This document shows positions 4,749 through 23,389 of a DNA stretch of 64,000 nucleotides, piece after piece (position 1 is the stretch's first letter; the number at the start of each line of letters is the position of its first letter). The position numbers were made by a program, and so were the translations under genes. This DNA is from an uncultured Alphaproteobacteria bacterium. GTDB taxonomy: Bacteria; Pseudomonadota; Alphaproteobacteria; MPNO01; DASWLB01. A model generated the notes under the pieces. That model was not told where the DNA came from. It was given only the letters and a program-made list of their open reading frames with translations, and ran no database searches. The stretch is from positions 841,193-905,192 of the forward strand of contig CAVZIN010000007.1 in assembly GCA_963775315.1 (NCBI GenBank). The letters run 5' to 3'.

Positions 4749-4775
4749 CGGTCGAGCGTTCGGCCCTCGTAGTTC

Positions 4776-5830: not shown

Positions 5831-5858
5831 TAACATCCTCCCGACCGGGAGGGATTCC

Positions 5859-7637: not shown

Positions 7638-7859
7638 CTACGCCCGCGGGATCAGGTGGAGCATCATCAGCTCGTCGGGGGTGAGGGAACGGCGCGCGCC
7701 GTCCCCCGGATAGACCTCCCACGCGTCGCGCTCGACGGTCTGCCAATCGAACCCGACGATCAGGGCGAGAGCGATGCGCGCCAGCGTCCGCCTCAGCCCC
7801 GCCTCGCGCGCGGGCGCGACGTAGCCCGGCGGGTCGTAGCGCTTCAGCACCCCGCTCAT
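7638..7859 (-). CDS. Small hypothetical protein (73 aa) co-transcribed downstream of the Rieske oxygenase pair
   Basis: ATGA start/stop overlap with the upstream Rieske gene, strong GC3 codon bias, and it fills the convergent gap. No recognisable domain. Confidence 0.4.
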   Translation of the reverse strand: MSGVLKRYDPPGYVAPAREAGLRRTLARIALALIVGFDWQTVERDAWEVYPGDGARRSLTPDELMMLHLIPRA

Positions 7860-8881: not shown

Positions 8882-8897
8882 CACTCGGTCCTTTCGT

Positions 8898-9989: not shown

Positions 9990-10006
9990 TTGCAAGTTCC
10001 GTGCCA
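9990..10006 (-). promoter_or_regulatory. Sigma-54 (RpoN) promoter for the Rieske oxygenase operon
   Basis: Minus strand reads TGGCACGGAACTTGCAA, a GG-N10-GC match to TGGCACG-N4-TTGCW, about 40 nt upstream of the start at 9950. Confidence 0.7.
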
Positions 10007-10060
10007 CTCCGAAGCCGCCGTGTTTTCAGGCGTCCCGATCCACGGATCGGAGGCTGTTGC

Positions 10061-10984
10061 CTAGCCCGTGGGCAGCGCTGCCCGAAACGGATGCGTCCGC
10101 ATCCAATGTCGTGCGACGTCGACGCGGCGCGCGATCCATACGTCGCGATGGCCGAGTACGTGATCGAGGAAGCGCTCGACACCGGCGGCGCGCGCGGCAT
10201 GGCCGCTGACCCGGAGGTGGAGCGAGAGGGTCATCGCCCGCGGCCGCCGCGCCGACTCCCGGTACAGGACGTCGAACGCATCGGTCATGTAGGTGACGAA
10301 GTCGCTGGACGTGGCGAACCAGCCGCGGCCGTACTTGTTGTCGTTGTGACTGAAGGTGTGGGGCAGGACCAGGAACGGCTTGCCGCGATCGGTCGTCCAG
10401 AACGGCAGGTCGTCGGCGTAGGAGTTGCAGTCGTAGAGGAAGCCGCCCTCTTCGATCAGCAGCCGTCGGGTGTTGAGCGACGGCCCGTAGCGGCAATACC
10501 AGCCGAGGGGCCGTTCACCCATTGTGCGGGTGAGCGAGGCGACGGCGCCGACGATGTGGTCGCGCTCCGCCGCCTCGTCCATGTTGAACTGCTCGACCCA
10601 GCGCCAGCCGTGGCAGAGCACTTCCCACCCCGCCTCTCGGATCGCCTGGGCAGCGTCGGGATTGCGCTCGAGGGCGAGCGCCGCACCGCTTACCGTCACG
10701 GGCAAGTCGCGCTCACGGAACAGATCGTGCAGCCGCCAGAATCCGACCCGGCTTCCGTATTCGAACAGGGACTCGGCGGCGAGGTCGCGCCCCTTGACGC
10801 CGAGGTCCGGGGCGCCGGCGTCGGTCATCGTGGCCTCCGACCTGCCGTCGCCGTCGGGCACCGAGTACTCCGACCCCTCCTCGTAATTCAGCACCAGGTT
10901 GAACGCCATGCGGGCGCCGTTGGGCCAGCACGGGTCGGGCGGATTGCGCCCGTACCCGACCATGTCGCGCGGATAGTCGGTCAT
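10061..10984 (-). CDS. Divergent PuuE-type allantoinase / polysaccharide deacetylase-family cyclic-ureide hydrolase
   Basis: MTDYPRDMVGYGRNPPDP...NYEEG...FEYGSRVGFWRL resembles PuuE, but the active-site region differs from the canonical copy at 23390. ATGA overlap with the allA stop. Confidence 0.8.
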   Translation of the reverse strand: MTDYPRDMVGYGRNPPDPCWPNGARMAFNLVLNYEEGSEYSVPDGDGRSEATMTDAGAPDLGVKGRDLAAESLFEYGSRVGFWRLHDLFRERDLPVTVSGAALALERNPDAAQAIREAGWEVLCHGWRWVEQFNMDEAAERDHIVGAVASLTRTMGERPLGWYCRYGPSLNTRRLLIEEGGFLYDCNSYADDLPFWTTDRGKPFLVLPHTFSHNDNKYGRGWFATSSDFVTYMTDAFDVLYRESARRPRAMTLSLHLRVSGHAARAAGVERFLDHVLGHRDVWIARRVDVARHWMRTHPFRAALPTG

Positions 10985-11481
10985 GCGGCGATTTCCACGC
11001 GGAGCCCCAGCCGCCCTTTCAGGGCCGCCGACTGGTGGTCGGTCCGGTTGGTGTCGGCGAGCTCGAGATTGAGGAAGTCCATGCAGGGCGCACGGAAATA
11101 AGGGCCCGCATGCCAGGTGCCGCAGTGGAGCTTCACGATGGCGGGTCCGACGATGGTGAAGGCGCGGAGCGTGCCGGGTTCGGGCAGCGCCTGTGGGTCG
11201 TCGAACGCCGCGGGTGGCGCCACCGCGAGGAACCATTCGAGCCCGAGGGCCGATCCCAGGCACTGCGTCACCTTCCGGTGTCGCGCCAGTGCCTCGAAGG
11301 CCAACCCGTGGTCGGGCACGCGCATGATGTAGAGCCGCGGCGTGCCGCCGAATTCCAGCCGCGCGTCCTCCGGACCGAACGGCGTGCCGTAGCCGGAGGG
11401 CGCGATCAGCTCGCCGAATGGCGCAAACGCGGCGGCGGTGATCGGCTCGGGCCGGAGGCGGATCAGGCGAGGTTCGATCAT
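10981..11481 (-). CDS. allA: Ureidoglycolate lyase (AllA family)
   Basis: 166 aa with the AllA-family PFG motif (EPITAAAFAPFGELI), consistent size and ureide-pathway context. Confidence 0.8.
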   Translation of the reverse strand: MIEPRLIRLRPEPITAAAFAPFGELIAPSGYGTPFGPEDARLEFGGTPRLYIMRVPDHGLAFEALARHRKVTQCLGSALGLEWFLAVAPPAAFDDPQALPEPGTLRAFTIVGPAIVKLHCGTWHAGPYFRAPCMDFLNLELADTNRTDHQSAALKGRLGLRVEIAA

Positions 11482-12734
11482 GACACGCGGTCCTTTGCGC
11501 GTGCCATGGCGAGGGGTGTGTCGGTATAGAGGCGGCGCAGCTTCGCCCGGTGGTCAGGCCCGTCCCGTCCGGCCGTCGCGCGCACCGGATCGGCGCCTTG
11601 CAGCAACGGCGCGCTCGCATCCCACGAGAAGCGGCTGACGAAGGCGATACGCTCGGCGCGGGCGGCCTCGAACGCGGCGGTGAAGGCGGGGGCGTCGAAC
11701 CTGTGGGCCGCCGCCTCCGCGAAGGACGTGAGGAGCGCGCACCCGTCCTCGATCGCCTGGGTCGCGCCCTGGCCGAGCGTGGGCGCCATGGCATGGCTGG
11801 CGTCGCCGAGGAACAGCACATGGCCGCTTGTGTCGCGGTAGGCGGCGTCGATTTCCTGCGCGCGCGACCAGTGCAGCGGGCCCTCGCACCGGGCCAGCGC
11901 GTCGATCAGCCACGCGCAGCTCGGATCGGGAGCGCCGGCGTGGGGGCGGTAGGCGGCGCAGAGACGGTTCCGGTCGGCGCAGCCTTCCGGCACCTCGCCA
12001 TTCGCGTCGGTCGGCAGGTTGCCGGACAGGTAGACCACCCCGTCCGCCAGACGGAAGGCGAGCAGGCGGTTCGGCCCGGTGTAGAACTGCTCGAGATCGT
12101 CGATCCCGCTCGCGTCGGCGTCGGGCAGCAGCAGCCGGAAGTTGGCGACGCCGAGGAAGCGGGTCGCCGGAGTGCCGAGAAGCCGCTCGCGGAGGGGCGA
12201 GTAGCGCCCGTCGGCGGCGATCAGCAGGTCGATCCCTTCAATCCGCTTGCGCGCGCCGGTCACGTCGTCGATCAGGGTGAAGGAGATCGCCCCGCGTCGG
12301 CGCCCGGGCGTGATGGCGACGTCCTCGATGCGGGCGCGGAACCGCGCGAGCCGGCGCAGCGGCGCGCGGATGGCACGATAGAGCTCCGACCAGCGGATAC
12401 GGATGCCGTCCGTTTCCGCAACCTCTTCAAGCGGGATGAAATAGAGCAGGCGCCCGCCCGAGAGCGCGGCGCGCCATTGCCGCCATGGCAGGCTCGCCGC
12501 CTGCAGGTCCCGCGCGAGGGCGGGGAGGGTCGCCGCCAGAGCGCCCATCGCATTCGGTCCGACATTCAGCCCGTTGCCGGCATGGTCGTGGTCGTCCGGC
12601 CCGACCTTTTCGACCGCGATCAGCTCGACGTCCGGCCGTCCGGCGAGTCCTGCCGCGACCACGCCGCCGGCGACGCCGAGGCCGATCACGGCGACGCGCA
12701 GCGGCAGGCGCGCATTCACGCTGGCATTCGGCAT
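11478..12734 (-). CDS. FAD-dependent monooxygenase (HpxO/TmuM-like urate-type hydroxylase candidate)
   Basis: N-terminal GxGxxG (RVAVIGLGVAGG), DG and GD(A/S)xH flavin monooxygenase motifs, operon with allA and puuE-like, sigma-54 promoter upstream. Confidence 0.8.
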   Translation of the reverse strand: MPNASVNARLPLRVAVIGLGVAGGVVAAGLAGRPDVELIAVEKVGPDDHDHAGNGLNVGPNAMGALAATLPALARDLQAASLPWRQWRAALSGGRLLYFIPLEEVAETDGIRIRWSELYRAIRAPLRRLARFRARIEDVAITPGRRRGAISFTLIDDVTGARKRIEGIDLLIAADGRYSPLRERLLGTPATRFLGVANFRLLLPDADASGIDDLEQFYTGPNRLLAFRLADGVVYLSGNLPTDANGEVPEGCADRNRLCAAYRPHAGAPDPSCAWLIDALARCEGPLHWSRAQEIDAAYRDTSGHVLFLGDASHAMAPTLGQGATQAIEDGCALLTSFAEAAAHRFDAPAFTAAFEAARAERIAFVSRFSWDASAPLLQGADPVRATAGRDGPDHRAKLRRLYTDTPLAMARAKDRVS

Positions 12735-12768
12735 GCTGGCAAACCCTCGACCATCCCAGCGCGAGGGA

Positions 12769-12784
12769 TGCAAATTCCGTGCCA
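12769..12784 (-). promoter_or_regulatory. Sigma-54 promoter for the FAD monooxygenase-allA-puuE-like operon
   Basis: Minus strand reads TGGCACGGAATTTGCA, about 35 nt upstream of the start at 12734. Confidence 0.7.
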
Positions 12785-12912
12785 CGCGGGTTCGCCCGGA
12801 AACCGGGCGGCCGGCCGGCGCCCTGTGCCCAGTGTTCGGGCAGGCTGCATATTCGCGCGCCATCGCTGGCCGCGCGGAACGGCCTTCGGAACGGATTCCG
12901 CCCTGGAAACGG

Positions 12913-12930
12913 TTGGCACGATTCTTGCGA
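12913..12930 (+). promoter_or_regulatory. Sigma-54 promoter for the isochorismatase-cupin-CocE operon
   Basis: TGGCACGATTCTTGCGA. The 22-mer GGTTGGCACGATTCTTGCGAGG is identical to the promoter at 20156-20177 on the opposite strand. Confidence 0.75.
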
Positions 12931-12940
12931 GGTGTGCCGC

Positions 12941-13720
12941 ATGGATGCTCGCGAAGATACGAAGCGATCGTTGGGCACGGCGCCCGCGAACCGCTGGCGG
13001 GTGGACGCGGCGGAAGTCGATCTCGTCCGGGCCCAGCCGGTGCCTCGCCCGGTGCGGATCGCCGCGACGCCGCAGAACCTGACGCTCGACCTTGCGCGCA
13101 CGGCGATCCTGGTGATCGACATGCAGAACGATTTCTGCCACCCGGACGGGTGGCTTGCCTCGATCGGCGTCGACGTGTCGCCGCTGCGCGCCCCGATCGC
13201 CCCGCTCGCGGGGCTCCTGCCGGCACTGCGCCAGGCCGGGGTGCCGGTGGTGTGGGTCAATTGGGGCAACCGGCCGGACCGGCTCAACCTCAGCCCGTCC
13301 TTGCTGCACGTCTACAAGCCGACCGGCGAGGGCGTCGGGCTCGGCGATACTCTGGTCAGCGGTGCGCACGTTCTTCAGAAGGGAAGCTGGTCGGCCGCCA
13401 TCGTCGACGACCTCGCGCAAGAGCCCGTCGACATCCATGTCGACAAGTACCGGATGAGTGGATTTTGGGACACGCCGCTCGATTCCATCCTACGCAATCT
13501 AGGAGTGGCGACCTTGCTGTTCGCCGGCGTCAATGCCGACCAGTGCGTACTCTGCTCGCTTCAGGACGCGAACTTCCTGGGACACGATTGTGTCCTCCTC
13601 GAAGACTGCACCGGGACGAGCTCGCCGAAGTTCTGCTTGGAGGCGACGCTCTACAATGTGCGCCAGTGCTTCGGCTTCGTCGCGGGGTCCGGGGCCTTGG
13701 TCGCGGCGTTGGCAAGATGA
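12941..13720 (+). CDS. Isochorismatase-family cysteine hydrolase (RutB / N-carbamoylsarcosine amidase / maleamate amidase-like)
   Basis: LVIDMQNDFCHPDGW and a C-terminal block YRMSGFWDTPLDSILRNLGV...GVNADQCVL close to RutB. GAGGTG RBS and a sigma-54 promoter 10-30 bp upstream. Confidence 0.85.
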   Translation: MDAREDTKRSLGTAPANRWRVDAAEVDLVRAQPVPRPVRIAATPQNLTLDLARTAILVIDMQNDFCHPDGWLASIGVDVSPLRAPIAPLAGLLPALRQAGVPVVWVNWGNRPDRLNLSPSLLHVYKPTGEGVGLGDTLVSGAHVLQKGSWSAAIVDDLAQEPVDIHVDKYRMSGFWDTPLDSILRNLGVATLLFAGVNADQCVLCSLQDANFLGHDCVLLEDCTGTSSPKFCLEATLYNVRQCFGFVAGSGALVAALAR

Positions 13721-14160
13721 AGGCGATCCTCAAGCATCCCGGCGAGCTGCGCGCGTTTCGCATCAGCCCGGGCGACACCAACTACCTCGCCTGCGTGTTC
13801 GACCCGGTCGAGCACGGCGAGGTCGGCTTCACCGCGGTGATCGAAATCTTCGAGCAGGGCGGGAAGACGCCGCCCAATACCCACCGCGCGGCGCACGAGA
13901 TGTTCCTGGTGCTGGAGGGCGAGGGGATCGCGACCTGCGACGGCCGCGCCGAGAAGGTACGGACGGGCGATGTGCTGTTGGTCCGGCCCGGCGCCGAACA
14001 CGTGGTCGAGAACACCGGGCCGGGGCGGCTCTACTGCTTCACCGTCATGGTGCCGGACGAGGAATTCGCGGCGCTGATCCGGGGCGGCATCCCGGTCGCG
14101 CTAGACGCCGCCGACCTCGCCGTCATCACCCGCGCACCGGGCTTCGCGCCGCATGGCTGA
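13717..14160 (+). CDS. Cupin-domain protein
   Basis: 147 aa single cupin (G(X)5HxH-like THRAAHEMFLVLEGEG ... PGAEH) with ATGA coupling to the upstream gene. Confidence 0.7.
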   Translation: MKAILKHPGELRAFRISPGDTNYLACVFDPVEHGEVGFTAVIEIFEQGGKTPPNTHRAAHEMFLVLEGEGIATCDGRAEKVRTGDVLLVRPGAEHVVENTGPGRLYCFTVMVPDEEFAALIRGGIPVALDAADLAVITRAPGFAPHG

Positions 14161-15820
14161 CGGGAGTCCGGAAATTGTCTCCATGCGCACCCGCGACGGG
14201 GTGCGGCTTGACGCGGACGTCTATTTCCCGCCGGCGACACTGAAGGGCCCGCACCCGGTATTGATGATGCGCCAGCCCTATGGACGGCGCATTGCCTCGA
14301 CCGTGACCTTTGCCCACCCGTCCTGGTACGCGGCACACGGCTATATCGTGGTGATCCAGGACGTGCGCGGGCGCGGGACGTCGGAGGGCGTGTGGCGGGC
14401 CTTCGAGAACGAGGCGGCGGACGGGGCCGACGCGGTGCGCTGGGCTGCCACGCTGCCGGGGGTGAGCGGGGCCGTCGGCATGTACGGCTTTTCCTACCAG
14501 GGCGCGACGCAGCTCCTTGCTGCGGGCGGGCTCGCCGCGGAGGACGGAACGACCGGCGCGCTCAAGGCCATAGCCCCGGCGATGACCGGGTGGCGCATTC
14601 ACGACGACTGGGCCTATGAGGGTGGAGCGTTCGCGCTGGCCGCCAACGTGTCGTGGGGCCTCCAGACGGCCGCGGAGACCGCGCGGCTCGCCAGGGACGA
14701 GGAAGCGTTCGTGGCACTCGCCCGCGCCGCCGCCGCGCCGCCGCTGCGGGACGCCATTCCGGCGGTCCCGGACATATTGCGGCGCTACGCCAGCTACGCC
14801 CACTACATGGAGTGGGTGGGCAATCCCGGCAACGGCCCCTACTGGGACCGCATCGCGCCGGCCGCGCAGATGGGGCGCGCCGACCTTCCGGCGCTGCACG
14901 TCGGCGGCTGGTACGATTCGTTCCTCGCCGGCACGCTCGCCGCCTATCGCGAGCTCTCGGCGCGGGCTCGAAGCCCGCAGCATCTTGTCGTCGGCCCTTG
15001 GACCCATCTCGACTGGACGGGGCGGCATTCCGCCTACGACGCCGGCCCGGCGGGCGCAAACACGATCGACGCGCTGCAGCTCCGCTGGTTCGACCATTGG
15101 TTGAAGGGCGCGGCGAACTGGGACGCGGTCGAACGGCCGGTGCAGCTTTTCGACATGGGTGCCAACGTGTGGCGCGGGTTCGAGAGGTGGGACGCGGCGC
15201 CGTCGCACGCGCTGCACTTGGCGAGCGATGGGCGAGCGGCGCTGATGCCGTGCGCCGGCCGGCTCACGGACGTGGCGGGACCGCCCGGCGCGAACGTGGT
15301 GGTGCTCGACCCATGGCGACCGCCGCCGAGCCATGGCGGCCATGCGGCCCCGCCGGTCGGGCGGGTCGACCGCGCCGCCATCGACGACCGGCCCGACGTC
15401 TGCGCCTACACGACGGAGCCGCTCTCCGGGCCGCTGCGCCTCGCCGGGGCCGTCGCGGCGGAGCTCTGGGTGCAGGCCGACCAGTCGAGCTTCGATGTCT
15501 CCGCCGTGCTATCGGAGCTCCGCCCCGACGGCAAGGTGGTGAATTTGACCCAGGGCTATCGCCGCGTGGCGCCCGGCGAAGGGGCAGCGCCGCTCCGCGT
15601 CGAGATGCGCGGCACGGCGGCGACGATCCCGGCCGGAACCGCGCTCCGCCTCTCGCTCGCGCCGTCCTGCTTTCCGGCCTTCCCGGTGAACGGGGGCGAC
15701 GGCGCGCCGCCCGCGGTCGCACGGCGAATCGACCAGCGGATCGTGACGCTCACCATTCGCCACGGGTCCGGCACACCGTCGCGCCTGCTGCTCCCGATCG
15801 TCGCTGAGGGGTCCGCGTGA
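14153..15820 (+). CDS. CocE/NonD-family hydrolase (X-Pro dipeptidyl-peptidase S15-like alpha/beta hydrolase)
   Basis: 555 aa with the GxSYxG nucleophile elbow (MYGFSYQG) and a C-terminal beta-sandwich domain. Confidence 0.8.
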   Translation: MADGSPEIVSMRTRDGVRLDADVYFPPATLKGPHPVLMMRQPYGRRIASTVTFAHPSWYAAHGYIVVIQDVRGRGTSEGVWRAFENEAADGADAVRWAATLPGVSGAVGMYGFSYQGATQLLAAGGLAAEDGTTGALKAIAPAMTGWRIHDDWAYEGGAFALAANVSWGLQTAAETARLARDEEAFVALARAAAAPPLRDAIPAVPDILRRYASYAHYMEWVGNPGNGPYWDRIAPAAQMGRADLPALHVGGWYDSFLAGTLAAYRELSARARSPQHLVVGPWTHLDWTGRHSAYDAGPAGANTIDALQLRWFDHWLKGAANWDAVERPVQLFDMGANVWRGFERWDAAPSHALHLASDGRAALMPCAGRLTDVAGPPGANVVVLDPWRPPPSHGGHAAPPVGRVDRAAIDDRPDVCAYTTEPLSGPLRLAGAVAAELWVQADQSSFDVSAVLSELRPDGKVVNLTQGYRRVAPGEGAAPLRVEMRGTAATIPAGTALRLSLAPSCFPAFPVNGGDGAPPAVARRIDQRIVTLTIRHGSGTPSRLLLPIVAEGSA

Positions 15821-15823
15821 ACG

Positions 15824-17203
15824 TTATGCGAGCGGGGCGAAGGTGCGCATCTTGCCGGGGTTGAGAAGCCCGTAGGGGTCTGCGGTCAGCTTGAACCCAT
15901 GCTGGTCGCCGGCGATCTGCTTGTGCCGCGTACCGTCCTCCAGCGTGTAGACGTGCGGGTTGGCGATCATCGCGCCATGGGATTCGTGGTAGGCGATGAT
16001 CTCGTTCAGCCGCTTCTCGGTGGTGAAGCGCACCAGGGGCAGACCGGAGCAGGTGAGCTCGCCGGCATACTTGATGATCTCGAGGTGCATCGGGAGTTCG
16101 TCGCCGAACTTGGCGCGCATGTGCTGCACGGTCTCGAGCGCCCGGCCGGCCGGGTAGAGGATCTGCAAATAGGTCACCGACTTGTCCACCTTGAGCGCGT
16201 GCAGGGTGGTGTGGTTCCAGGTGTATTCGTAGAGCGGCGGGTAGGCGGCGCGGTCCTCGGTCGCGATGGAATCCTCGTCGTAGGTGAGCGTTCCGCGGTG
16301 CTCCTCGATCAGGTCGGCAAGAGCGACCATCGATCCCTCGGCAATCATGCAGATCACAATGTGCTTGCCCTCGGGCAGGATCGTGTTGAGGCGCGGAAAG
16401 TATTTCGGGATCGGCCAGGCGACAGGAGTCACCAGCTTCTTCACGATGCCGTCGGCCGCGCCGAGCGCGAAGGCGAAGAGACCGGCGTCGAGGAAATCGT
16501 CGAACGCCACCACCACGTCTCGCCACGGCCAGAGCGGCGTCAGCGGCATCTCGATCTCGGTGATGATCCCGGTCGTCCCGTACGCGTGGTTGACTACGTT
16601 GGCGGCCTTGCCCTTGAGGTCGAGGACGCGTGGTTCCGCCTCCGCCGTCACGACGCGGGCCCCGATCACGTTGCCCGGCTCGCGCAGCCCGCCGAACGTG
16701 ACCGAGCCGATGCCGCCGGAGCCGCCGGCCACGAACCCGCCGATGGTCGCGGTTCTCTTGGTCGAGGGATACATGCGCTGCTCCCAGCCGAACCGGCGGG
16801 TCTGGTGGTCGAGCTCGAGCATGTACTTGCCCGGACCGACGCGGACGCGGCCCGGTGAAATCTCGCGCACCTCGTTCATCTCGATCATGTCGAGCAGCAC
16901 GCCGCCGGAGAGCGGCACGGCTTGGCCGTAATTCCCGGTGCCGCCACCGCGTGCGGTGACCGGCACGCGGTGGCGCACGGCGGCGCGCATCACCGTCACC
17001 ACGTCAGCTTCCGAGCGGGGCGTGACGACGATCTCCGCGAGGCGGGTTTCGAGCTGAGGCTTCAGGATCGGACTGTACCAGAAGAAGTCGTGCGACTTCT
17101 TGCGGATATGGCGGGCGTCGCGCGTGTGCGGCACCGACCCGAGATCATCGAGGAAGGCGTCGAGGGCCCGCGAGGGCGGCGCGGCGGCGGCGAGGCGGCT
17201 CAT
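15824..17203 (-). CDS. FAD-linked oxidase (PCMH-type FAD-binding oxidoreductase)
   Basis: 459 aa, FAD-binding_4 motifs (ARGGGTGNYG...), and last gene of the creatininase operon. Confidence 0.85.
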   Translation of the reverse strand: MSRLAAAAPPSRALDAFLDDLGSVPHTRDARHIRKKSHDFFWYSPILKPQLETRLAEIVVTPRSEADVVTVMRAAVRHRVPVTARGGGTGNYGQAVPLSGGVLLDMIEMNEVREISPGRVRVGPGKYMLELDHQTRRFGWEQRMYPSTKRTATIGGFVAGGSGGIGSVTFGGLREPGNVIGARVVTAEAEPRVLDLKGKAANVVNHAYGTTGIITEIEMPLTPLWPWRDVVVAFDDFLDAGLFAFALGAADGIVKKLVTPVAWPIPKYFPRLNTILPEGKHIVICMIAEGSMVALADLIEEHRGTLTYDEDSIATEDRAAYPPLYEYTWNHTTLHALKVDKSVTYLQILYPAGRALETVQHMRAKFGDELPMHLEIIKYAGELTCSGLPLVRFTTEKRLNEIIAYHESHGAMIANPHVYTLEDGTRHKQIAGDQHGFKLTADPYGLLNPGKMRTFAPLA

Positions 17204-18516
17204 ACGGCGGGCGCCCCCAGCACGGCGTCCAGCATTCGATAATCGGGAGGGGCGGTATCGATCGGCTTGCCCGACCGCAGCACGATGCGATCGTTCTGTG
17301 GGCGGCTCAGCATCTCGGAATAGCTGCGCCCGCGCAGGACCACCAGATCGGCCGTTGCGCCGCGCGCGATCTTGCCGGCATCGCTCGCCCCCATGACCGA
17401 GGCCGGAGTCGACGTGATCGCTGCCGGCCAGCCGTCATAGTCGGAGTCGAGGTGGGCGATGCGGGTCGCCTGGGTGAACACTTCCACCATGTCGAGGTCG
17501 CCGAACCCGCAGAACGGGTCGCGCGTGTTGTCGGACGAGATCGAAACCGGGATGTCGTGGCTCTTGAACTCCTGAAGCAGCGTGACGCCGCGATATCGCG
17601 GCGTGCGGCCGGGCGTGCGGTCCTGAAGGTACATGTTGCACATCGGGAGGCTGACGATGGAGAGCCCGCAGTCGGCCGCGAGCCCGAGCACCGTCTCGAC
17701 ATACTCGTCAGACTGAACCGAAAAGGCGCAGCAATGGCCGCAATTCACCTTGCCGCGGAAGTTGCGGCGCAGCGCGGCTTCGGCGACGGCCTTGAGCGAG
17801 CGGGCCTCGGGATCGAGCCCTTCGTCAATGTGGAAGTCGAGGTTGAGCCCGCGCTCGGCCGCGAGCAGGAACACGCGGTCGAGCAGCGCCGGCGCTTCCT
17901 TCTCGATATAGCTCACCGCGCCCAGAACGCCGCCGCTTTCGGCCACCAGGTCGGCCATCGCCTTGCCGGCGTCCCGATCGGCGAAGAACGAGATCGGCAC
18001 CAGGTTGACCGGTTGCAGCTCGATGCGCCCGGCCCAGCGCTCGCGCACCTCGCGCACCACCGGCCAGCTTCGCACGTTCTGGGGCGGTAGGCTGTCGACA
18101 TGGGTGCGGATCGCCTTGGTGCCGTGGGCGTAGGCGCAGGCTAGGCTGAATTCCATCCGCGCGCGCACGTCGTCCGGCGACCAGTTCGCCTCGCGGTCGG
18201 CCGCGACGTTGGTGTAGGCGCCCATGAACGTGCCGTCCGGGTTGCGCCGGCGCGGCCAGATATGGCCCTTGTCGAGGTGGGTGTGGAGCTCGACGAAGGA
18301 GGGCCAGACGAGCCCGTCGTCGGCGTCGTGGACCGGGCCATCCACCGGCGCCGAGCCGGGCTTCGCAATTGCCGCGATCTTGCCATCCGCGACGTGGATG
18401 TCGACGCGAACGAGACCGTCGGAAAGCGTGGGGGCGCCGGCCGGGATCAGGTCGAGGCAGATTGCCGGGACCGTGGCGTTCGTCAGCCAATGGTCCTTGA
18501 GTTCGAGCGCGCTCAT
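17200..18516 (-). CDS. Cytosine/creatinine deaminase-like amidohydrolase (CodA/AtzC family)
   Basis: MSALELKDHWL... start with ATGA overlap to the ATPase stop, and the HTHLDKG metal motif; 439 aa. Confidence 0.8.
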   Translation of the reverse strand: MSALELKDHWLTNATVPAICLDLIPAGAPTLSDGLVRVDIHVADGKIAAIAKPGSAPVDGPVHDADDGLVWPSFVELHTHLDKGHIWPRRRNPDGTFMGAYTNVAADREANWSPDDVRARMEFSLACAYAHGTKAIRTHVDSLPPQNVRSWPVVREVRERWAGRIELQPVNLVPISFFADRDAGKAMADLVAESGGVLGAVSYIEKEAPALLDRVFLLAAERGLNLDFHIDEGLDPEARSLKAVAEAALRRNFRGKVNCGHCCAFSVQSDEYVETVLGLAADCGLSIVSLPMCNMYLQDRTPGRTPRYRGVTLLQEFKSHDIPVSISSDNTRDPFCGFGDLDMVEVFTQATRIAHLDSDYDGWPAAITSTPASVMGASDAGKIARGATADLVVLRGRSYSEMLSRPQNDRIVLRSGKPIDTAPPDYRMLDAVLGAPAV

Positions 18517-19304
18517 GATTGGCGCCCCATCGCATCGGTCAGCATCGCGGATACCTCGCGGCAGTAGTCGGCGTAGACGTTCGAGGTGCGGAATGCCTCG
18601 GTCCGGGGGTAGGGGGCGTCGATCTCGATCTCGCCCACGACGCGGCCCGGCCGCGCGGCCATCACGATGATGCGGCGCGAGAGGTAGACCGACTCGAAAA
18701 CGCTGTGGGTAACGAAGATCACCGTCCAGTCGTTGTCGCCCCAAAGCTCCAGCAGGTCGTTGTTGAGCTTGAAACGCGTGATTTCGTCGAGGGCGGCGAA
18801 GGGCTCGTCCATCAACAGGAGGCGCGGCTTCACGATCATGCCGCGCGCGATGGAGACGCGCATCTTCATGCCGCCCGAAAGCTCGCGCGGGTAGGAATTC
18901 TCGAAGGCGGAGAGCCCGACGCGCGCGATGGCCGCCTTCACATCCGGCGCGGCCTTCGTCCGCGAGACGCCCTCGAGGCGGAGGGGGAGGTAGACGTTCT
19001 CGAACACCGTGGCCCAGGGCATCAGGGTCGGCTCCTGGAACACGAAGCCCACTTCGCGCTCCGGGTTGCCGCCTGCGTCGTAGGACGAGGTGGGCCAGTC
19101 GACCGTGCCGGCGCTCACCCCGGACAGGCCCGAGATGAGCTTGAGTGCCGTCGACTTGCCGCAGCCAGACGGGCCCAGCAGGCTGACGAAATCGTGCTCG
19201 TGGATGTCGATGTCGAGCCCGCGCAGCGCAATCGTTCCATTTTCGAACGTCTTGGAGACGCCCTTGATGCTGACCAGCGGGCGATCGGCCGTGATTACCG
19301 CCAT
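18513..19304 (-). CDS. ABC transporter ATP-binding protein (NitT/TauT family)
   Basis: Walker A GPSGCGKST, signature LSGGMKMR, Walker B LLLMDEP, GGAGAAGG RBS. Confidence 0.9.
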   Translation of the reverse strand: MAVITADRPLVSIKGVSKTFENGTIALRGLDIDIHEHDFVSLLGPSGCGKSTALKLISGLSGVSAGTVDWPTSSYDAGGNPEREVGFVFQEPTLMPWATVFENVYLPLRLEGVSRTKAAPDVKAAIARVGLSAFENSYPRELSGGMKMRVSIARGMIVKPRLLLMDEPFAALDEITRFKLNNDLLELWGDNDWTVIFVTHSVFESVYLSRRIIVMAARPGRVVGEIEIDAPYPRTEAFRTSNVYADYCREVSAMLTDAMGRQS

Positions 19305-20128
19305 GACGACGCCTTCTCCATGCTGTGGCGCGAGATGATGCGGTCGAGCGGGTAGCGCGCGACCTCGTCCAGAAGCGCGACCAGTGCATTGGCCGCGTGG
19401 TCGATCAGCAGCTTTCCGCGCTCCGGATCGGCGTCGAGCGCATTGCCGCAGGCGCCATCGGGGTGCAGGTCCTGGGTTTGCCAGCCGAACCCGATCTTCC
19501 CTTCGGCGCGGAGGTAGGTGTAGCTCCGCGCCACGTCCTCGGCGGCGGATTGGAAGTTCGCGAGGCGCGCGTGGTTCACGAGCTCGGGTCGCGCCGCCAT
19601 CATGATCGAGGTCTCGACCGCGCCGCCGTGGATGCCGAACTCGAGCTCGTCGTCGCTGAACAGGCCCTTCGGCCGCCCGAGTCCGCCCGGTCCCACCGTG
19701 ACGACGAACATGCCGAGCCGGACGCGCAGATCGCGGGCGACGATGTCGGCGATCTGCGGCTGTCCGCCATGGGTGTTGAGGATCAGCATGCGGCGCACGC
19801 CGGTCCGATGGACCAACTCGCCGATCTCGGTCCAGAGGCGCGTCAAAGTCTCGGCCGACAGGGTAAGCGTTCCGGGAAATTCCTGGTGCTCGTTCGATTT
19901 GCCGACGTTCATCGCCGGTAGGACGAGGACGGGCAGTGCCTCGGGCGCGCGCGCCACGGCCTCGCCGACGATCGCCCGGTTGATCGCGGCGTCGACGCAA
20001 ACCGGGAGATGCGGCCCGTGCTGTTCAATGGCGGCGACCGGCAGCAGGGCGACGATGCGCGCGGCATCCAGTGCCGCGAACTCCGTGGTCGTCAGCTCTT
20101 CCCAATAGCGGCTCGGCAATCGGCTCAT
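19295..20128 (-). CDS. Creatininase-family amidohydrolase (creatinine amidohydrolase-like)
   Basis: 277 aa with creatininase-fold motifs (HGPHLP, NTHGG), GGGAAGGG RBS, and a sigma-54 promoter about 30 bp upstream. Confidence 0.85.
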   Translation of the reverse strand: MSRLPSRYWEELTTTEFAALDAARIVALLPVAAIEQHGPHLPVCVDAAINRAIVGEAVARAPEALPVLVLPAMNVGKSNEHQEFPGTLTLSAETLTRLWTEIGELVHRTGVRRMLILNTHGGQPQIADIVARDLRVRLGMFVVTVGPGGLGRPKGLFSDDELEFGIHGGAVETSIMMAARPELVNHARLANFQSAAEDVARSYTYLRAEGKIGFGWQTQDLHPDGACGNALDADPERGKLLIDHAANALVALLDEVARYPLDRIISRHSMEKASSWR

Positions 20129-20157
20129 CGCATCCCTTCCCGGTCCCGCCCCATCCC

Positions 20158-20177
20158 TCGCAAGAATCGTGCCAACC
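20158..20177 (-). promoter_or_regulatory. Sigma-54 promoter for the creatininase-ABC ATPase-deaminase-FAD oxidase operon
   Basis: Minus strand reads GGTTGGCACGATTCTTGCGA, about 30 nt upstream of the start at 20128. Confidence 0.75.
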
Positions 20178-20314
20178 GGCGGCGCTGCGGATTTGACGCG
20201 ATTTGCGCCGCAAGGCGCCGCGCGGCTGCACAGCGAATGCGCAGGCTGGTCACGCGATGGGCAACGCGGCCCCGTGAAACGTGCGAAGGGGCCCGCACGC
20301 GGCCGTTTTCGTCG

Positions 20315-20331
20315 TGGCACGGTTCTTGCGA
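20315..20331 (+). promoter_or_regulatory. Sigma-54 promoter for the Rieske-less oxygenase paralog
   Basis: TGGCACGGTTCTTGCGA, 30 nt upstream of the ATG at 20361. Confidence 0.7.
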
Positions 20332-20360
20332 CGCAAAGGCGGTCTACCAAGGGAGGAGCC

Positions 20361-21239
20361 ATGCTTGCGACCCGACAGAACTTGCTGCGCCACTTCTGGT
20401 ACCCGCTGATGCCCGTCGACGGCATCGGGCTGCTGCCGCGCCCGTTCACGCTGCTGGGCCGCGAACTTCTCTTGTGGCGCGATGCGGGAGGAGCGGTCCG
20501 GGCCTCTCCGGAGCCGGCCGGCATCGACGAGCGCTACGGCTATGTCTGGCTCGTCCTCGCCGAGCCGCTGTTCCCGATCCCACCGCTGCCGCCGGCATCG
20601 GACCCGGCGTTTCGCATGATCTCCGAATTTTACGAGGTGTGGCGCTGCGCCGGGCTCCGGCTTATGGAGAACGAGTTCGACAATGCCCACGTTGCCTTCG
20701 TCCACCGCGCGACGTTCGGGGTGATCGCGGAGCCCGAGCCGCCGCGCTCGACCATCTCGCCGACCGCGGATGGGTTCGAGATGCGGACCGTGTTCAACGT
20801 CCGCAACAACGATTTGCAACTGCGCAACCTGCGGACCGCCGAGGACCGCATCGACCGCAATATCGTGATGACCTGGTTCATGCCGTTCTCGCGGACGCTC
20901 GACATCCGCTATCCGAGCGGGCTGCGCCACGTGATCTTCACCGCCGCTACCCCGATCGACGACGCCCATTCGCAGTTCGTGCAGTTCGCCATGCGGAACG
21001 ACAGCGAGGCCGAGGCGTCGGCCGCGGGAGTCGTCGCGTTCGACCGGCAGGTGACCTCGGAGGACCGCGCTGTCCTGGAGACGACCGACCCCGACGTGCC
21101 GCTCGACCTCCGTGCCCGGAACGAGGTGCACATGGCATCGGACCGACCGGGGCTGGTGATGCGCCGCATGCTGGGGGCGGTTCTCGCCCGGCGCGGAGAG
21201 GCGGAGGCGACGGGTGCGCGCGCGCCTGCCTGTTCCTGA
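20361..21239 (+). CDS. Rieske-less paralog of the Rieske oxygenase catalytic subunit (NdmC-like; retains the mononuclear Fe site)
   Basis: 292 aa that align with the paralogs at 7856 and 8898, but the roughly 55 aa carrying CxH...CxxH are absent. Keeps ENEFDNAHVAFVH. GGGAGGAG RBS and a sigma-54 promoter. Confidence 0.75.
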   Translation: MLATRQNLLRHFWYPLMPVDGIGLLPRPFTLLGRELLLWRDAGGAVRASPEPAGIDERYGYVWLVLAEPLFPIPPLPPASDPAFRMISEFYEVWRCAGLRLMENEFDNAHVAFVHRATFGVIAEPEPPRSTISPTADGFEMRTVFNVRNNDLQLRNLRTAEDRIDRNIVMTWFMPFSRTLDIRYPSGLRHVIFTAATPIDDAHSQFVQFAMRNDSEAEASAAGVVAFDRQVTSEDRAVLETTDPDVPLDLRARNEVHMASDRPGLVMRRMLGAVLARRGEAEATGARAPACS

Positions 21240-21325
21240 GGCTGTTGACCAACGATTGATCGAACTTTGTCGGGAAGCGACGGACGCGAAGGCCGTTCGC
21301 GCCCGCCCGGTGGCATTCCCCGCCG

Positions 21326-21341
21326 TGGCACGAATCTTGCA
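21326..21341 (+). promoter_or_regulatory. Sigma-54 promoter for the SBP-permease-puuE-allC-uraD-puuD operon
   Basis: TGGCACGAATCTTGCA, about 47 nt upstream of the ATG at 21388. Confidence 0.7.
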
Positions 21342-21387
21342 TCGCCCCTTTCGGCCGTCCGCAACGTCGAACGATTGGAGATCAACG

Positions 21388-22449
21388 ATGCCGACCAGAT
21401 TATCGAAGCCGCGCGGTCTCGCGGCGAGGCGCGCTGCGCCCCTGTTTGCCGCGGCAGCCGCCTTCGTCGCCGCGGCGCTTTCGGCCCATGGCGCCCTCGC
21501 GAACGAGAAGATCAACTTCCTGACCTCGTGGAAGGCGGAGGCCGAGCACGGCGGCTTCTACCAGGCGCAGGCGACGGGCATCTACAAGAAGTACGGGCTC
21601 GACGTCACGATCCGCCAGGGCGGACCGCAGATCAACGCAACCCAGATGCTGGTCGCGGGCGCGGTCGACATGGCCATGCTGTCTTCGAACGACGACCTGC
21701 TGGTCGCGCTCAAGAATGGCGGGCACATCACGGCTGTGATGGCCGGCATGCAGAAATCGCCGCGTGTCCTGCTTGCCCATCCCGACTCGGGGATCAAGTC
21801 GCTTGCCGACATGAAGGGGCGGCCGATCTTGATCTCCTCGGAATCGATCAACACCATGTTCGCCTGGCTCAAGGCCAAGTATGGGTTCAAGGATTCCCAG
21901 ATCCGCAAGTACACGTTCAACATGGCGCCCTTCATCGCCGAGAAGTCCGCCATTCAGCAGGGCTATGTGTCGAGCGAGCCCTACGTCATCAAGAAGGAGG
22001 GCGGGTTCGACCCGGAGGTCTTCCTCCTCGCCGACTACGGCTACGACACCTACGCCACGATCGTCGCCGTGCCGAACTCGTGGATAAAGACGAAGCCTAA
22101 GGTGGTGCAGGACTTCGTCAACGCCTCGATCGACGGCTGGTACAGCTACATGTACGGCGACCCGTGGCCCGCGAACGCCCTGATCAAGAAGGACAATCCG
22201 GAGATGACCGATGACACGATCGCGTACTCGATCGAGACGATGAAGAAGTACGGCATCGTCGATTCCGGCGACTCCCTGAAGGAAGGGATCGGCGCGATGT
22301 CGGACGCGCGCTGGAAGAGCCAGTTCGACGCGGCCGCGTCAGTTGGGGTCTATCCGAAGGACCTTCCCTACAAGGAGGCCTACACGCTCCAGTTCGTGAA
22401 CAAGGGTCACGGGCTCGAGATGAAGTCCGCCATGAAGCCGAAGATGTGA
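21388..22449 (+). CDS. ABC transporter substrate-binding protein (NMT1/TauA/SsuA family), paralog 1
   Basis: Signal peptide, NMT1-like fold, GGAGA RBS and a sigma-54 promoter. Confidence 0.9.
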   Translation: MPTRLSKPRGLAARRAAPLFAAAAAFVAAALSAHGALANEKINFLTSWKAEAEHGGFYQAQATGIYKKYGLDVTIRQGGPQINATQMLVAGAVDMAMLSSNDDLLVALKNGGHITAVMAGMQKSPRVLLAHPDSGIKSLADMKGRPILISSESINTMFAWLKAKYGFKDSQIRKYTFNMAPFIAEKSAIQQGYVSSEPYVIKKEGGFDPEVFLLADYGYDTYATIVAVPNSWIKTKPKVVQDFVNASIDGWYSYMYGDPWPANALIKKDNPEMTDDTIAYSIETMKKYGIVDSGDSLKEGIGAMSDARWKSQFDAAASVGVYPKDLPYKEAYTLQFVNKGHGLEMKSAMKPKM

Positions 22450-22456
22450 GAGAGTG

Positions 22457-23377
22457 ATGGTCGGTATTCAGCGTGCCATGTCGCGCGGCAAGCTTCACCC
22501 CGGGTCGGTCGCTCCGGCCCGGGCCGGCCGCGCCGCCCCGCCCGCCGCGGACGTCGAGTCCGAGGCGCCGGTCGTCGAGACCTCCAGCCATCGCCAGGCG
22601 CTGGTCAAGTTCCTGATCCCCGCCTTGGTCGGTGTCGCGTTCATCGGCTTCTGGCAGTGGTCCGTCGGCTATTTCGGCGTGCCAAAATTCGTGCTGCCGG
22701 CGCCGAGCCTGATTGCCGCCTCGTTCGTGAAGGACTTCCACTCGCTGCTCGCGTCATTCTGGATCACGTTCCAGGTAACGCTGTCGGCCTTTCTCCTGGC
22801 GGTGGTGACCGGCATCGCGATCGCGGTGATCTTCGTGCAGAACCGCGCCATCGAGTATGCGCTGTTCCCATACGCGGTGATCCTGCAGGTGACGCCGGTC
22901 GTCGCTATCGCGCCGCTGATCATCATCTGGGTCGGGTTCGATCATATCGAGGTGGCGGTGCTGATCCTCGCCTGGATCGTCGCCTTCTTCCCGATCCTGT
23001 CGAACACGACCATTGGGCTCAGCTCGGCGGACCACAATCTTCGAGACCTGTTCTCGCTCTATGGCGCGTCGCGCTGGCAGGTGTTTCGCTACCTCCAGCT
23101 TCCGACCGCTCTGCCCTACATCCTTGGCGGGGCGCGGATCTCGGGCGGGCTTGCCCTGATCGGGGCCGTGGTAGCGGAGTTCGTGGCCGGCTCCGGCGCC
23201 GCCACGGGCCTCGCCTGGCGAATCGTGGAAGCGGGCAACCGGCTCAACATCCCGGCGATGTTCGCGGCACTGATCCTCCTGTCCGCGCTCGGCATCGCCA
23301 TCTTTTTCTGTCTCACCTGGCTGCAGAGCCTGCTGCTCGGGCGTTGGCACGAGAGCGCCGTCGCGCGCGGCGGCTGA
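22457..23377 (+). CDS. ABC transporter permease (BPD_transp_1)
   Basis: Six predicted TM segments; no ATPase gene in this operon. Confidence 0.9.
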   Translation: MVGIQRAMSRGKLHPGSVAPARAGRAAPPAADVESEAPVVETSSHRQALVKFLIPALVGVAFIGFWQWSVGYFGVPKFVLPAPSLIAASFVKDFHSLLASFWITFQVTLSAFLLAVVTGIAIAVIFVQNRAIEYALFPYAVILQVTPVVAIAPLIIIWVGFDHIEVAVLILAWIVAFFPILSNTTIGLSSADHNLRDLFSLYGASRWQVFRYLQLPTALPYILGGARISGGLALIGAVVAEFVAGSGAATGLAWRIVEAGNRLNIPAMFAALILLSALGIAIFFCLTWLQSLLLGRWHESAVARGG

Positions 23378-23389
23378 CGGCCGCCGCCG

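Follow-up and report, generated by a model that had tools for sequence, protein, structure and literature searches.

The described systems that come closest to the gene set dealt with here are the Rut pathway of Escherichia coli (RutA-G), creatinine degradation, the allantoin route, the cyanuric acid/biuret/triuret pathway, and the xanthine-riboswitch (NMT1 motif) regulon. The gene set in question fills positions 12941-20128 of a 64,000-nucleotide (nt) stretch of DNA from an uncultured alphaproteobacterium (below, the window means this whole stretch), and encodes hydrolases, a cupin, a deaminase, a flavin adenine dinucleotide (FAD)-dependent oxidase and the ATPase of an ATP-binding cassette (ABC) importer; together with the binding protein and the permease encoded nearby, it is called the module. 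The reading that we favour, with about even confidence, is that the module serves in nitrogen scavenging under sigma-54 control, and imports and dismantles a small nitrogen-rich heterocycle, either a cyclic amidine or a ureide. What seems to be new is a catabolic operon set assembled from familiar hydrolase and oxidase folds, which is widespread and mis-labelled by automatic annotation.

How does this set compare with the known systems? The Rut pathway is also devoted to nitrogen scavenging under control of the sigma-54/NtrC type, and a ring-opened ureido compound is cut there by an isochorismatase-family hydrolase, while RidA (RutC), an alpha/beta hydrolase (RutD) and a flavoprotein reductase (RutE) handle reactive products, all of which have likenesses in the module, here or in other genomes. 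Unlike in Rut, with its flavin monooxygenase pair, neither a luciferase-like RutA nor RutF was found near the module, ring opening would presumably be hydrolytic and be left to a creatininase fold, the importer is of the ABC type instead of RutG, the module has in addition a deaminase and an FAD oxidase like GlcD, and the hydrolase falls short of the RutB equivalog model. Creatinine degradation shares with the module the folds of creatininase, of a CodA-type deaminase and of an isochorismatase-type amidase, and also the logic by which a cyclic amidine is converted to a cyclic urea, then to an N-carbamoyl acid and to an amino acid. However, the creatininase equivalog model is missed, residues of the substrate pocket are replaced, and ATP-dependent N-methylhydantoinase, creatinase and sarcosine oxidase were not found among the scanned open reading frames (ORFs).

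The allantoin route (PuuE/AllB, AllC, ureidoglycine aminohydrolase, and ureidoglycolate lyase/dehydrogenase) is likewise composed of a ring hydrolase, a ureido-amidohydrolase, a cupin and a 2-hydroxy-acid enzyme, and its canonical genes adjoin the module in the window under the same promoter type. The superfamilies are different, though: the module has a creatininase fold against PuuE/AllB, a cysteine hydrolase against an M20 enzyme, a monocupin against a bicupin, and a flavoprotein of the VAO/GlcD type. Because the canonical allantoin set is also present, the module is no replacement for the allantoin route in this genome. The cyanuric acid/biuret/triuret pathway (AtzD, BiuH/TrtA, AtzF) is similar in its BiuH/TrtA-clade hydrolase (109 and 86 bits for the module protein), AtzC is the second-best relative of the deaminase (82 bits), and a close isochorismatase-cupin pair elsewhere adjoins an allophanate hydrolase. 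On the other hand, the BiuH equivalog model is missed, and the window has no AtzD/barbiturase ring hydrolase and no allophanate hydrolase. Finally, the xanthine-riboswitch regulon of Proteobacteria, in the relevant passages of its description, comprises importers of the NMT1/TauA type, pcbC-like 2-oxoglutarate (2OG) and Rieske oxygenases, and amidohydrolases, with ties to the oxidation of purines (Yu and Breaker, 2020; PMC7373994), whereas the window has sigma-54 promoters and no riboswitch. Creatininase occurs nowhere in the text of that paper, and FAD oxidase, isochorismatase and cupin do not appear in its relevant passages.

Arrangement of the module in the window

Gene models were made from frame analysis of G+C at third codon positions (GC3) and from translations; the G+C content of the window is ~68%, and raw ORF lists consist mostly of spurious frames. 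Positions 12941-20128 are filled exactly by seven intact genes in two operons, each with a sigma-54 promoter, and overlaps of 4-10 nt between neighbouring genes are operon-like. The models of 277, 459 and 259 amino acids (aa) are identical to public protein calls. The promoter elements and genes of the module and its importer are as follows.

12914-12928, + strand: sigma-54 -24/-12 element TGGCACGATTCTTGC before the isochorismatase operon, a perfect match to TGGCAC-N5-TTGC
12941-13720, + strand: isochorismatase-family cysteine hydrolase of the RutB/BiuH/TrtA clade, 259 aa (PF00857, 119 bits)
13717-14160, + strand: monocupin, 147 aa (Cupin_2, 56 bits)
14153-15820, + strand: CocE/NonD (S15) alpha/beta serine hydrolase, 555 aa (Peptidase_S15 and PepX_C; TIGR00976, 381 bits)
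15824-17203, - strand: FAD_binding_4 flavoprotein oxidase/dehydrogenase, GlcD/D-2-hydroxyacid dehydrogenase-like, 459 aa (PF01565, 101 bits)
17200-18516, - strand: CodA-like deaminase of the amidohydrolase superfamily, 438 aa (Amidohydro_3; NF005759, 603 bits, cutoff 403)
18513-19304, - strand: ABC ATPase of the NitT/TauT type, 263 aa (ABC_tran, 104 bits)
19295-20128, - strand: creatininase-fold binuclear-metal amidohydrolase of the 'HGG' subtype, 277 aa (PF02633, 233 bits)
20160-20174, - strand: sigma-54 element TGGCACGATTCTTGC of the creatininase-ATPase-deaminase-oxidase operon, perfect, 32 nt upstream of the ATG at 20128
20315-20329, + strand: divergent sigma-54 element TGGCACGGTTCTTGC, followed by GGGAGGAG and the ATG at 20361, of a + strand operon
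20361-21239, + strand: oxygenase paralogue with a VanA_C domain, 292 aa (VanA_C, 80 bits)
21326-21340, + strand: sigma-54 element TGGCACGAATCTTGC before the gene of the NMT1-type binding protein, 47 nt upstream of the ATG at 21388
21388-22449, + strand: NMT1/THI5-like periplasmic binding protein (PF09084, 113 bits)
22454-23377, + strand: ABC permease, BPD_transp_1 (PF00528, 90 bits)

Profile scores of Pfam and NCBIfam agree with all the family assignments in the first-pass annotation of this DNA. One operon thus runs on the + strand as isochorismatase-cupin-CocE/NonD, and the other on the - strand as creatininase-family protein, ABC ATPase, CodA-like deaminase and FAD_binding_4 oxidase. The two had been described as divergent, but they are convergent, with their stop codons at 15820 and 15824. 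It is to be noted that only 3 nt separate these stop codons and that no intrinsic terminator was detected between the operons; therefore, antisense overlap of the two transcripts is probable. It is from the operon of an HpxO-like FAD monooxygenase (11478-12734, - strand) that the isochorismatase operon diverges. The ABC ATPase is without its partners in its own operon: the binding protein and the permease are encoded across the divergent promoter region at 21388-23377 (+ strand), so that a working importer needs both transcription units, one of which is the canonical urate-to-ureidoglycine operon.

Recurrence of the module in other genomes

The families of the module were followed in 160 loci overall: 80 genome loci around creatininase homologues (39-61% identity), in which the window proteins were scored by tblastn, and 80 metagenome loci around isochorismatase homologues (64-75% identity), 40 of which, of at least 8 kb, were scored. 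Around the creatininase homologues (n = 80), the ATPase is present in 53 loci, the NMT1-type protein and the permease in 41 each, the CodA-like deaminase in 32 and the FAD oxidase in 31, usually in the order NMT1-ATPase-permease-CodA-like-FAD oxidase; the cupin was found in seven loci, the isochorismatase in six and the S15 hydrolase in five. Around the isochorismatase homologues (n = 40), the counts are 35 for the cupin, which adjoins the isochorismatase gene in most cases, 22 for the ATPase, 21 for the creatininase, 19 for the FAD oxidase, 13 for an NQO-like protein, ten for RidA, nine for S15, eight for Rieske oxygenases and six for the CodA-like deaminase. Unbiased clustering of ORFs in the creatininase-centred loci brought out an NQO-like Flavodoxin_2 protein in 22 loci, frequently as tandem genes behind that of the FAD oxidase, and RidA in 16 loci. 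A creatininase-like protein, the FAD oxidase and an ABC importer of the NMT1 type make up the recurring core, which the NQO-like flavoprotein and RidA often join; variable add-ons are the CodA-like deaminase, the cupin with the isochorismatase, S15, and a Rieske oxygenase resembling NdmA.

These parts are combined in several ways. In Mesorhizobium, Rhizobium, Roseibium, Paracoccus, Ruegeria and Hoeflea, the order is NMT1-ATPase-permease-CodA-like-FAD oxidase-NQO, with a divergent creatininase-RidA pair (flavour A). Soil contigs carry a form without the deaminase, creatininase-cupin-isochorismatase-FAD oxidase-NQO-RidA-NMT1-ATPase-permease, sometimes followed by a Rieske oxygenase (flavour B). 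Both add-ons, usually together with S15, are found in the window, in metagenome-assembled genomes (MAGs) of Methylomirabilota and of Acetobacteraceae, and in Gluconobacter cerinus (flavour AB). Two long contigs have the orders cupin / creatininase-NMT1-FAD oxidase-FAD oxidase-Rieske / NQO-S15-isochorismatase, and isochorismatase-ATPase-permease-S15-FAD oxidase-NMT1 ... LysR / creatininase-cupin, respectively. In Ewingella and Pantoea, creatininase-cupin-isochorismatase is accompanied by an ABC importer of the Bmp/PnrA type and a TRZ/ATZ-type deaminase resembling 8-oxoguanine deaminase (329 bits, below cutoff).

All the parts of the module lie in one or two operons in five loci (G. cerinus L013, and L006, L009, L088 and L143). 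In G. cerinus, a single operon NMT1-ATPase-permease-CodA-like-S15-cupin-isochorismatase stands beside a divergent creatininase-FAD oxidase pair, and from this order it follows that both operons of the window belong to one functional unit. That they belong together had been assumed earlier, and the co-occurrence of the families in unrelated genomes speaks for it as well. The taxonomic spread covers Methylomirabilota, Acetobacteraceae, Rhizobiales, Rhodobacterales, Enterobacterales and Burkholderiales. Since the same families are syntenic in other genomes, the module is not a chance neighbourhood.

Sigma-54 promoters

The elements in front of the isochorismatase and creatininase operons are identical 15-mers, and the perfect -24/-12 element at 20160-20174 bears out the sigma-54 promoter formerly proposed for the creatininase operon. 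That at 12914-12928 ends 12 nt short of the ATG at 12941; with this spacing, the isochorismatase mRNA would be nearly leaderless, or else the real start would lie slightly downstream. TGGCAC-N5-TTGC without mismatch is present in seven copies within 9992-25671, each ahead of a gene with a ribosome-binding site. When up to one mismatch is allowed, the window has 12 matches against 3.6 expected from shuffling, and no shuffle gave 12. An eighth element, with one mismatch, lies at 30937-30951, and all the eight are near TGGCACG(A/G)(A/T)(A/T)(C/T)TTGC; they precede the genes of a Rieske oxygenase, the HpxO-like protein, the isochorismatase, the creatininase, the VanA_C protein, the NMT1-type protein, OHCU decarboxylase and a second NMT1-type protein. 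On the strength of the seven perfect elements and of the excess over shuffles, this island is a sigma-54 regulon, as far as predicted promoter elements define one.

In 2.16 Mb of related loci, 20 perfect sigma-54 sites were found, and half of these, ten sites in ten other loci, precede module genes by 40-171 nt. This proportion suggests that sigma-54 control is conserved across the module loci, and the control is probably by nitrogen. As for an activator of sigma-54, no GAFTGA, ESELFGH or Walker-type signature is present in any frame of the window. A separate sequence, TTGACCA-N-CGATTGA, occurs identically at 21245-21259 and 30866-30880 (+ strand), preceding the sigma-54 element of each of the two NMT1 genes by 81 and 71 nt, respectively, with no further exact copy in the window; it may be a site for an activator or a repressor.

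Proteins of the module

The creatininase-family protein scores 90.4 bits with the creatininase equivalog model TIGR04448, whose cutoff is 235, and about the same with the MftE model (93 bits). In a HMMER alignment to Pseudomonas putida creatininase (3A6E), which spans residues 9-192 only, E34, H36, D45, H120 and H178 are kept, the residues of the creatinine pocket are replaced (Y121G, W154G and W174F), and E122 has become Gly, giving an 'HGG' motif that is seen also in PDB 3LUB. By the published structures, E34, H36, D45, H120 and E122 (P. putida numbering) are the ligands of the binuclear metal centre, and H178 is catalytic. The residues kept support a metal hydrolase of the creatininase fold but not the exact site of creatininase, and the creatinine pocket is, judging from this alignment, absent. 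Homologues number more than 7,900 at E<1e-20, many of them 60-65% identical and from soil metagenomes.

The CodA-like protein, as listed above, lies well over the cutoff of NF005759 ('cytosine deaminase'), which presumably is a model derived from protein clusters without experimental validation. Its nearest structural relatives are E. coli CodA (122 bits) and then AtzC (82 bits). In CodA, Gln156 acts as a clamp for the pyrimidine, and D314 and W319 line the pocket. When the window protein is aligned with 29 other family members, H61, H63, H214, E217, H246 and D313 are invariant, the column of Gln156 is variable (P, G and others), and D314 and W319 are replaced by Asn and Phe, respectively, each in 29 of the 30 proteins. 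The CodA-like protein would thus be a deaminase, but probably not one for cytosine, and its specificity cannot be read from the sequence.

For the isochorismatase-family hydrolase, the best matches in PDB are RutB (8BKD, 132 bits), BiuH (6XJM, 109 bits) and TrtA (6XIX, 86 bits), and the Asp/Lys/Cys triad, equivalent to D24/K133/C166 of RutB, is kept. Neither equivalog model is reached, as TIGR03614 for RutB gives 139.5 bits against a cutoff of 378 and NF050097 for BiuH gives 118.7 against 370. The family and fold proposed for this protein in the first-pass annotation hold good, whereas its likeness to N-carbamoylsarcosine amidase does not: the sole chain so labelled ('CSHase related', 3EEF) matches with 54 bits over residues 141-225, and no other chain of that name is among the matches listed at E<=1e-5. 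Homologues with 60-75% identity are present in 86 loci. A 72%-identical isochorismatase-cupin pair elsewhere adjoins an allophanate hydrolase, two amidases, and PuuE-like and GGT/HpxW-like proteins, and these neighbours support ureide-type chemistry for the pair.

In the cupin, N54, H56, E61 and H95 are invariant and form a putative metal site. Its AlphaFold2 model has a predicted local distance difference test (pLDDT) score of 94, and a Foldseek comparison with PDB returned generic monocupin neighbours only. (S)-Ureidoglycine aminohydrolase was considered for this protein and rejected, as it is a monocupin of 147 aa and not a bicupin of ~260 aa, and reaches 20 bits with NF008376 against a cutoff of 338. 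The S15 hydrolase matches cocaine esterase with 200 bits and has the motifs of the catalytic triad, GFSYQG (Ser114), WYD (Asp255) and GPWTH (His285). The loci that contain it (five of the 80 creatininase-centred and nine of the 40 isochorismatase-centred ones) mostly have both the CodA-like and the isochorismatase genes.

The nearest NCBIfam models of the ABC ATPase are the ATPases of SaoA, taurine and nitrate transporters. Among NCBIfam models, the FAD oxidase matches GlcD best, with 77 bits, far under the cutoff. By contrast, its match to PDB 6V42/6V43, a structure with the generic name 'FAD/FMN-containing dehydrogenase' that tells no function, is 457 bits (E=8.6e-136), so close that the protein solved there is probably an orthologous relative. 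The closest public relative of the 6V42/6V43 sequence is a protein of Hoeflea sp. (P0121, 90% identical), whose locus (L086) is the module core: creatininase-RidA / NMT1-ATPase-permease-CodA-like-FAD oxidase-NQO-NQO, without isochorismatase, cupin and S15. The cluster must therefore have been studied by someone already. Neither for the combination of genes nor for 6V42/6V43 did a paper come up in the full-text literature searched, although one in a subscription journal is possible, and a hypothesis paper on guanidine from oxidised guanine has no evidence on the module cluster. The main caveat on novelty is hence that the function of the 6V42-type cluster may have been published in such a journal.

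Connection with purine genes

Downstream of the importer genes and in the same direction lie the genes of PuuE, allantoate amidohydrolase (allC), OHCU decarboxylase and PuuD urate oxidase. PuuE is a true member of its family (560 bits, cutoff 425), as is the allantoate amidohydrolase (546 bits, cutoff 479). In this genome, the tie to ureide genes noticed before is thus substantiated: the binding protein and permease are co-operonic with puuE, allC, the OHCU decarboxylase gene and puuD, and the promoter type is common. As a property of the module, however, the link to the allantoin branch did not stand, because PuuE, OHCU decarboxylase and PuuD are each found in one of the 80 creatininase-centred loci. 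The tie is specific to this genome, not to the module. Similarity at the DNA level to annotated plasmids is limited to matches at PuuE2 (23408-24292), whose protein is 82% identical to PuuE of Azospirillum, and loci of Sinorhizobium meliloti pSymB and Azospirillum (L001 and L002) have only puuE and the OHCU decarboxylase gene in common with the window.

The xanthine riboswitch (RF03054) was searched for; the window gave no match at the gathering score, nor did its positions 1-43000 at E<=5, and six core loci had none either. In G. cerinus NBRC 3267 (L013), 20018-20072 (- strand) scores 36.2 bits against a gathering score of 36, upstream of a pcbC-like 2OG dioxygenase gene and ~9 kb from the creatininase-FAD oxidase pair. 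The operon structure of the window, this match, and the composition of the xanthine-riboswitch regulon as seen in the passages cited above are the grounds on which we draw a connection to purines.

What does the module degrade?

Taking folds and conserved catalytic residues together with the families, synteny and promoters described above, we infer the following order of steps. The importer, with its NMT1-type binding protein, permease and ATPase, would take up a small polar substrate (step 1), and the CodA-like metallo-deaminase would convert an exocyclic amino or imino group, as in a cyclic amidine, into a carbonyl with release of NH3 (step 2). The creatininase-fold enzyme could then open the ring of the cyclic amide or urea (step 3), just as creatininase and allantoinase open the rings of their own substrates. 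The RutB/BiuH-like cysteine hydrolase might cleave the amide of a terminal ureido or acyl-urea group to NH3 and CO2 (step 4), the cupin and the S15 serine hydrolase, the latter by amide or ester hydrolysis, might handle unstable or leftover amide products (step 5), and the GlcD-like flavoprotein would oxidise a 2-hydroxy or amino acid product (step 6). In other genomes, RidA and the NQO-like flavoprotein may clear imines or quinonoid by-products, and the NdmA-like Rieske oxygenase is a candidate N-demethylase or hydroxylase. Because the module is plugged into a urate/allantoin island in this genome, the simplest guess for the substrate is a cyclic ureide or amidine related to purines.

Several points weigh against such a scheme. 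The order of steps and the activities are read from folds, and the cupin has generic structural neighbours in its model, which give no functional lead. Many loci do without the CodA-like gene, and many without the isochorismatase-cupin pair, so that the two may be alternatives, not successive steps; and RidA and the NQO-like protein, which are common elsewhere, are missing beside the module in the window. Purine genes, each in at most one of the 80 creatininase-centred loci, rarely adjoin the module elsewhere, and the xanthine riboswitch is absent from the window and the six core loci. Moreover, with no activator gene in the window, it is the promoter type that points to nitrogen. A bolder form of the scheme, which seems unlikely to us, is that of a widespread and undescribed nitrogen-regulated pathway, which runs parallel to the allantoin route with non-orthologous enzymes and takes cyclic amidines or ureides that the canonical enzymes cannot take. 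Candidates would be guanine oxidation products of the guanidinohydantoin/iminoallantoin type, compounds of the 5-hydroxyhydantoin/parabanate type, and N-methylated allantoin or hydantoin, with the NdmA-like Rieske proteins as N-demethylases.

Could the module be a creatinine pathway instead, as the first-pass annotation had it? Its idea of a cyclic amidine or ureide fits the folds, while its assignment to creatinine and N-methylhydantoin is not borne out, since the equivalog model is missed, pocket residues are replaced and the partners were not found among the scanned ORFs. In such a pathway, which we hold to be very improbable, the CodA-like protein would, as a creatinine deaminase, produce N-methylhydantoin, the creatininase-like protein would open its ring, the isochorismatase would be N-carbamoylsarcosine amidase and the FAD oxidase would act on sarcosine, possibly with N-demethylation by Rieske proteins. 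The folds do equal those of known creatinine enzymes, some cytosine deaminases act on creatinine (EC 3.5.4.21), the pairs of RidA and FAD oxidase elsewhere suit the oxidation of amino acids, and N-demethylase-like Rieske proteins of the NdmA type accompany the module. Yet the creatininase-like protein stays at 90 bits where TIGR04448 demands 235, with Y121, E122, W154 and W174 all replaced, the isochorismatase is RutB/BiuH-like and reaches only 54 bits with the 'CSHase-related' chain, and neither HyuA/HyuB N-methylhydantoinase nor creatinase nor sarcosine oxidase is among the scanned ORFs of the window, some stretches of which were outside the scans. The isochorismatase is found in just six of the 80 core loci and the deaminase in six of the 40 isochorismatase loci; as the two are mostly apart, these counts are difficult to reconcile with an invariable route by which creatinine is turned into N-methylhydantoin, N-carbamoylsarcosine and finally sarcosine. 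Besides, the module is abundant in soil and marine bacteria, for which creatinine is not an obvious major substrate. Another possibility, improbable in our view, is a Rut-like catabolism of aminopyrimidines, such as modified cytosine, isocytosine or the thiamine pyrimidine hydroxymethylpyrimidine (HMP), with deamination as the first step and no intrinsic link to purines. It would account for a deaminase nearest to E. coli cytosine deaminase, for the rarity of purine genes next to the module, and for the counterparts of RutB (isochorismatase), RutC (RidA), RutD (alpha/beta hydrolase) and RutE (NQO-like); the thiamine-pyrimidine binder ThiY also belongs to the NMT1/THI5-type binders. But the clamp residue Gln156 of CodA is not conserved, the importer is co-transcribed with urate/allantoin genes in the window, and the substrates known for the creatininase fold are, to our knowledge, five-membered lactams, formamides and peptides, and do not include pyrimidine rings. 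In addition, the relevant passages of Yu and Breaker (PMC7373994) link NMT1-annotated genes of this type to purines and keep them distinct from thiamine-related ones.

The module might also act upstream of urate, by importing a purine base, with the CodA-like protein as a deaminase of the guanine, isoguanine or 8-oxoguanine type, the oxygenases and the oxidase hydroxylating the purine, and the other hydrolases as accessories. E. coli CodA reportedly deaminates isoguanine (work of the Raushel laboratory), the Ewingella/Pantoea set combines a Bmp/PnrA-type importer with an 8-oxoguanine-deaminase-like TRZ/ATZ enzyme, and the window contains no purine-type xanthine dehydrogenase, its molybdenum cofactor (Moco) enzyme at 2112-4748 being 4-hydroxybenzoyl-CoA reductase-like. 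The xanthine-riboswitch regulon, in the passages of PMC7373994 that bear on it, also has the same type of transporter, 2OG and Rieske oxygenases, and amidohydrolases. We nevertheless regard this as improbable, because before urate no role would be left for the creatininase-fold ring hydrolase, the RutB-like ureido-amidase and the S15 hydrolase, purine genes are absent from most module loci, and no riboswitch is present in the window. Lastly, the genes might be functionally unrelated and neighbours by chance, the deaminase being a common one for cytosine, the ABC ATPase an orphan and the hydrolases a miscellany. NCBIfam does name the deaminase 'cytosine deaminase', and every family here is common in bacteria. 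Such an explanation is hardly credible, however, as the families recur jointly in many unrelated genomes in several gene orders, neighbouring genes overlap translationally, and the operons have a common sigma-54 promoter type; it is contradicted by the synteny statistics, and the taxonomic spread makes an artefact of sampling closely related genomes unlikely.

Automatic annotation labels the module genes 'creatinine amidohydrolase' and 'cytosine deaminase', and the creatininase-like protein has thousands of homologues in metagenomes from soil, fresh water and the sea; should these labels be wrong, the use of creatinine and cytosine is over-called in many genome-based studies of nitrogen cycling. 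Identity of the substrate would give functions to about ten recurring gene families and reveal an extra nitrogen source tapped alongside purines. It could also bring to light a ring opening of a new kind in the creatininase fold and, in the RutB/BiuH clade, a specificity not described before; with the structure of the partner flavoprotein solved (6V42/6V43), the system is open to experiment.

Other genes around the module

Two VanA-type Rieske oxygenases are encoded to the left of the module, and their best solved relatives are NdmA, a methylxanthine N-demethylase, and saxitoxin hydroxylases.

7856-8971: Rieske oxygenase, VanA-type
8898-9950: Rieske oxygenase, VanA-type

A second, divergent set of ureide-type paralogues at 10061-12734 (- strand) forms one sigma-54 operon with them; it consists of a PuuE-like deacetylase (356 bits, cutoff 425), a ureidoglycolate-lyase-like protein with a very weak match, and the HpxO-like FAD monooxygenase (58 bits). 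None of these three paralogues (HpxO-like, PuuE1-like and ureidoglycolate-lyase-like) goes with the module in other genomes. The VanA_C protein at 20361-21239 is 56% identical to the Rieske protein at 8898-9950 and has its own sigma-54 promoter and ribosome-binding site, but it shows no Rieske match: alignment with the two Rieske proteins reveals an internal deletion of ~50 aa, which removes the CxH...CxxH motifs. The gene call of 292 aa is found identically on a public contig, and the protein could be a decaying copy, or a Rieske-less subunit in a mixed trimer.

A Moco enzyme of three subunits, flanked by aconitase-family and Amidohydro_2 proteins, is encoded in a cluster at 1628-7124 (+ strand) and 616-1863 (- strand). 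Its large subunit (2112-4748) scores 1184 bits with TIGR03194, the alpha subunit of 4-hydroxybenzoyl-CoA reductase (cutoff 995), and by this match the cluster is aromatic or heteroaromatic, not a xanthine dehydrogenase. C-8 oxidation of caffeine or methylxanthines, an idea prompted by the Moco enzyme together with the HpxO-like monooxygenase and the Rieske proteins resembling NdmA, was discarded as an account of the module in view of the 4-hydroxybenzoyl-CoA reductase-like large subunit and of the paralogues that do not go with the module elsewhere.

To the right of the purine operon lie the genes of an M20 deacylase, a pcbC-like 2OG oxygenase and two further NMT1-type binding proteins. A short ORF at 29513-30244 (+ strand), which lies between the genes of the 2OG oxygenase and the second NMT1-type protein, has a weak TPP_enzyme_N match (26.5 bits, just below cutoff) and stop codons after it, and may be a fragment of a gene. 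Two tRNA genes, at 43214-43286 and 43351-43421 (- strand), mark the boundary between the island and the housekeeping chromosome, which begins at ~43.5 kb and encodes PCMT, a TolC-like protein, valyl-tRNA synthetase, IlvD and arginyl-tRNA synthetase. The gene of valyl-tRNA synthetase (46684-49360, + strand) is split into two overlapping frames, 46684-48315 and 47789-49360, which points to a frameshift or a sequencing error within 47789-48315.

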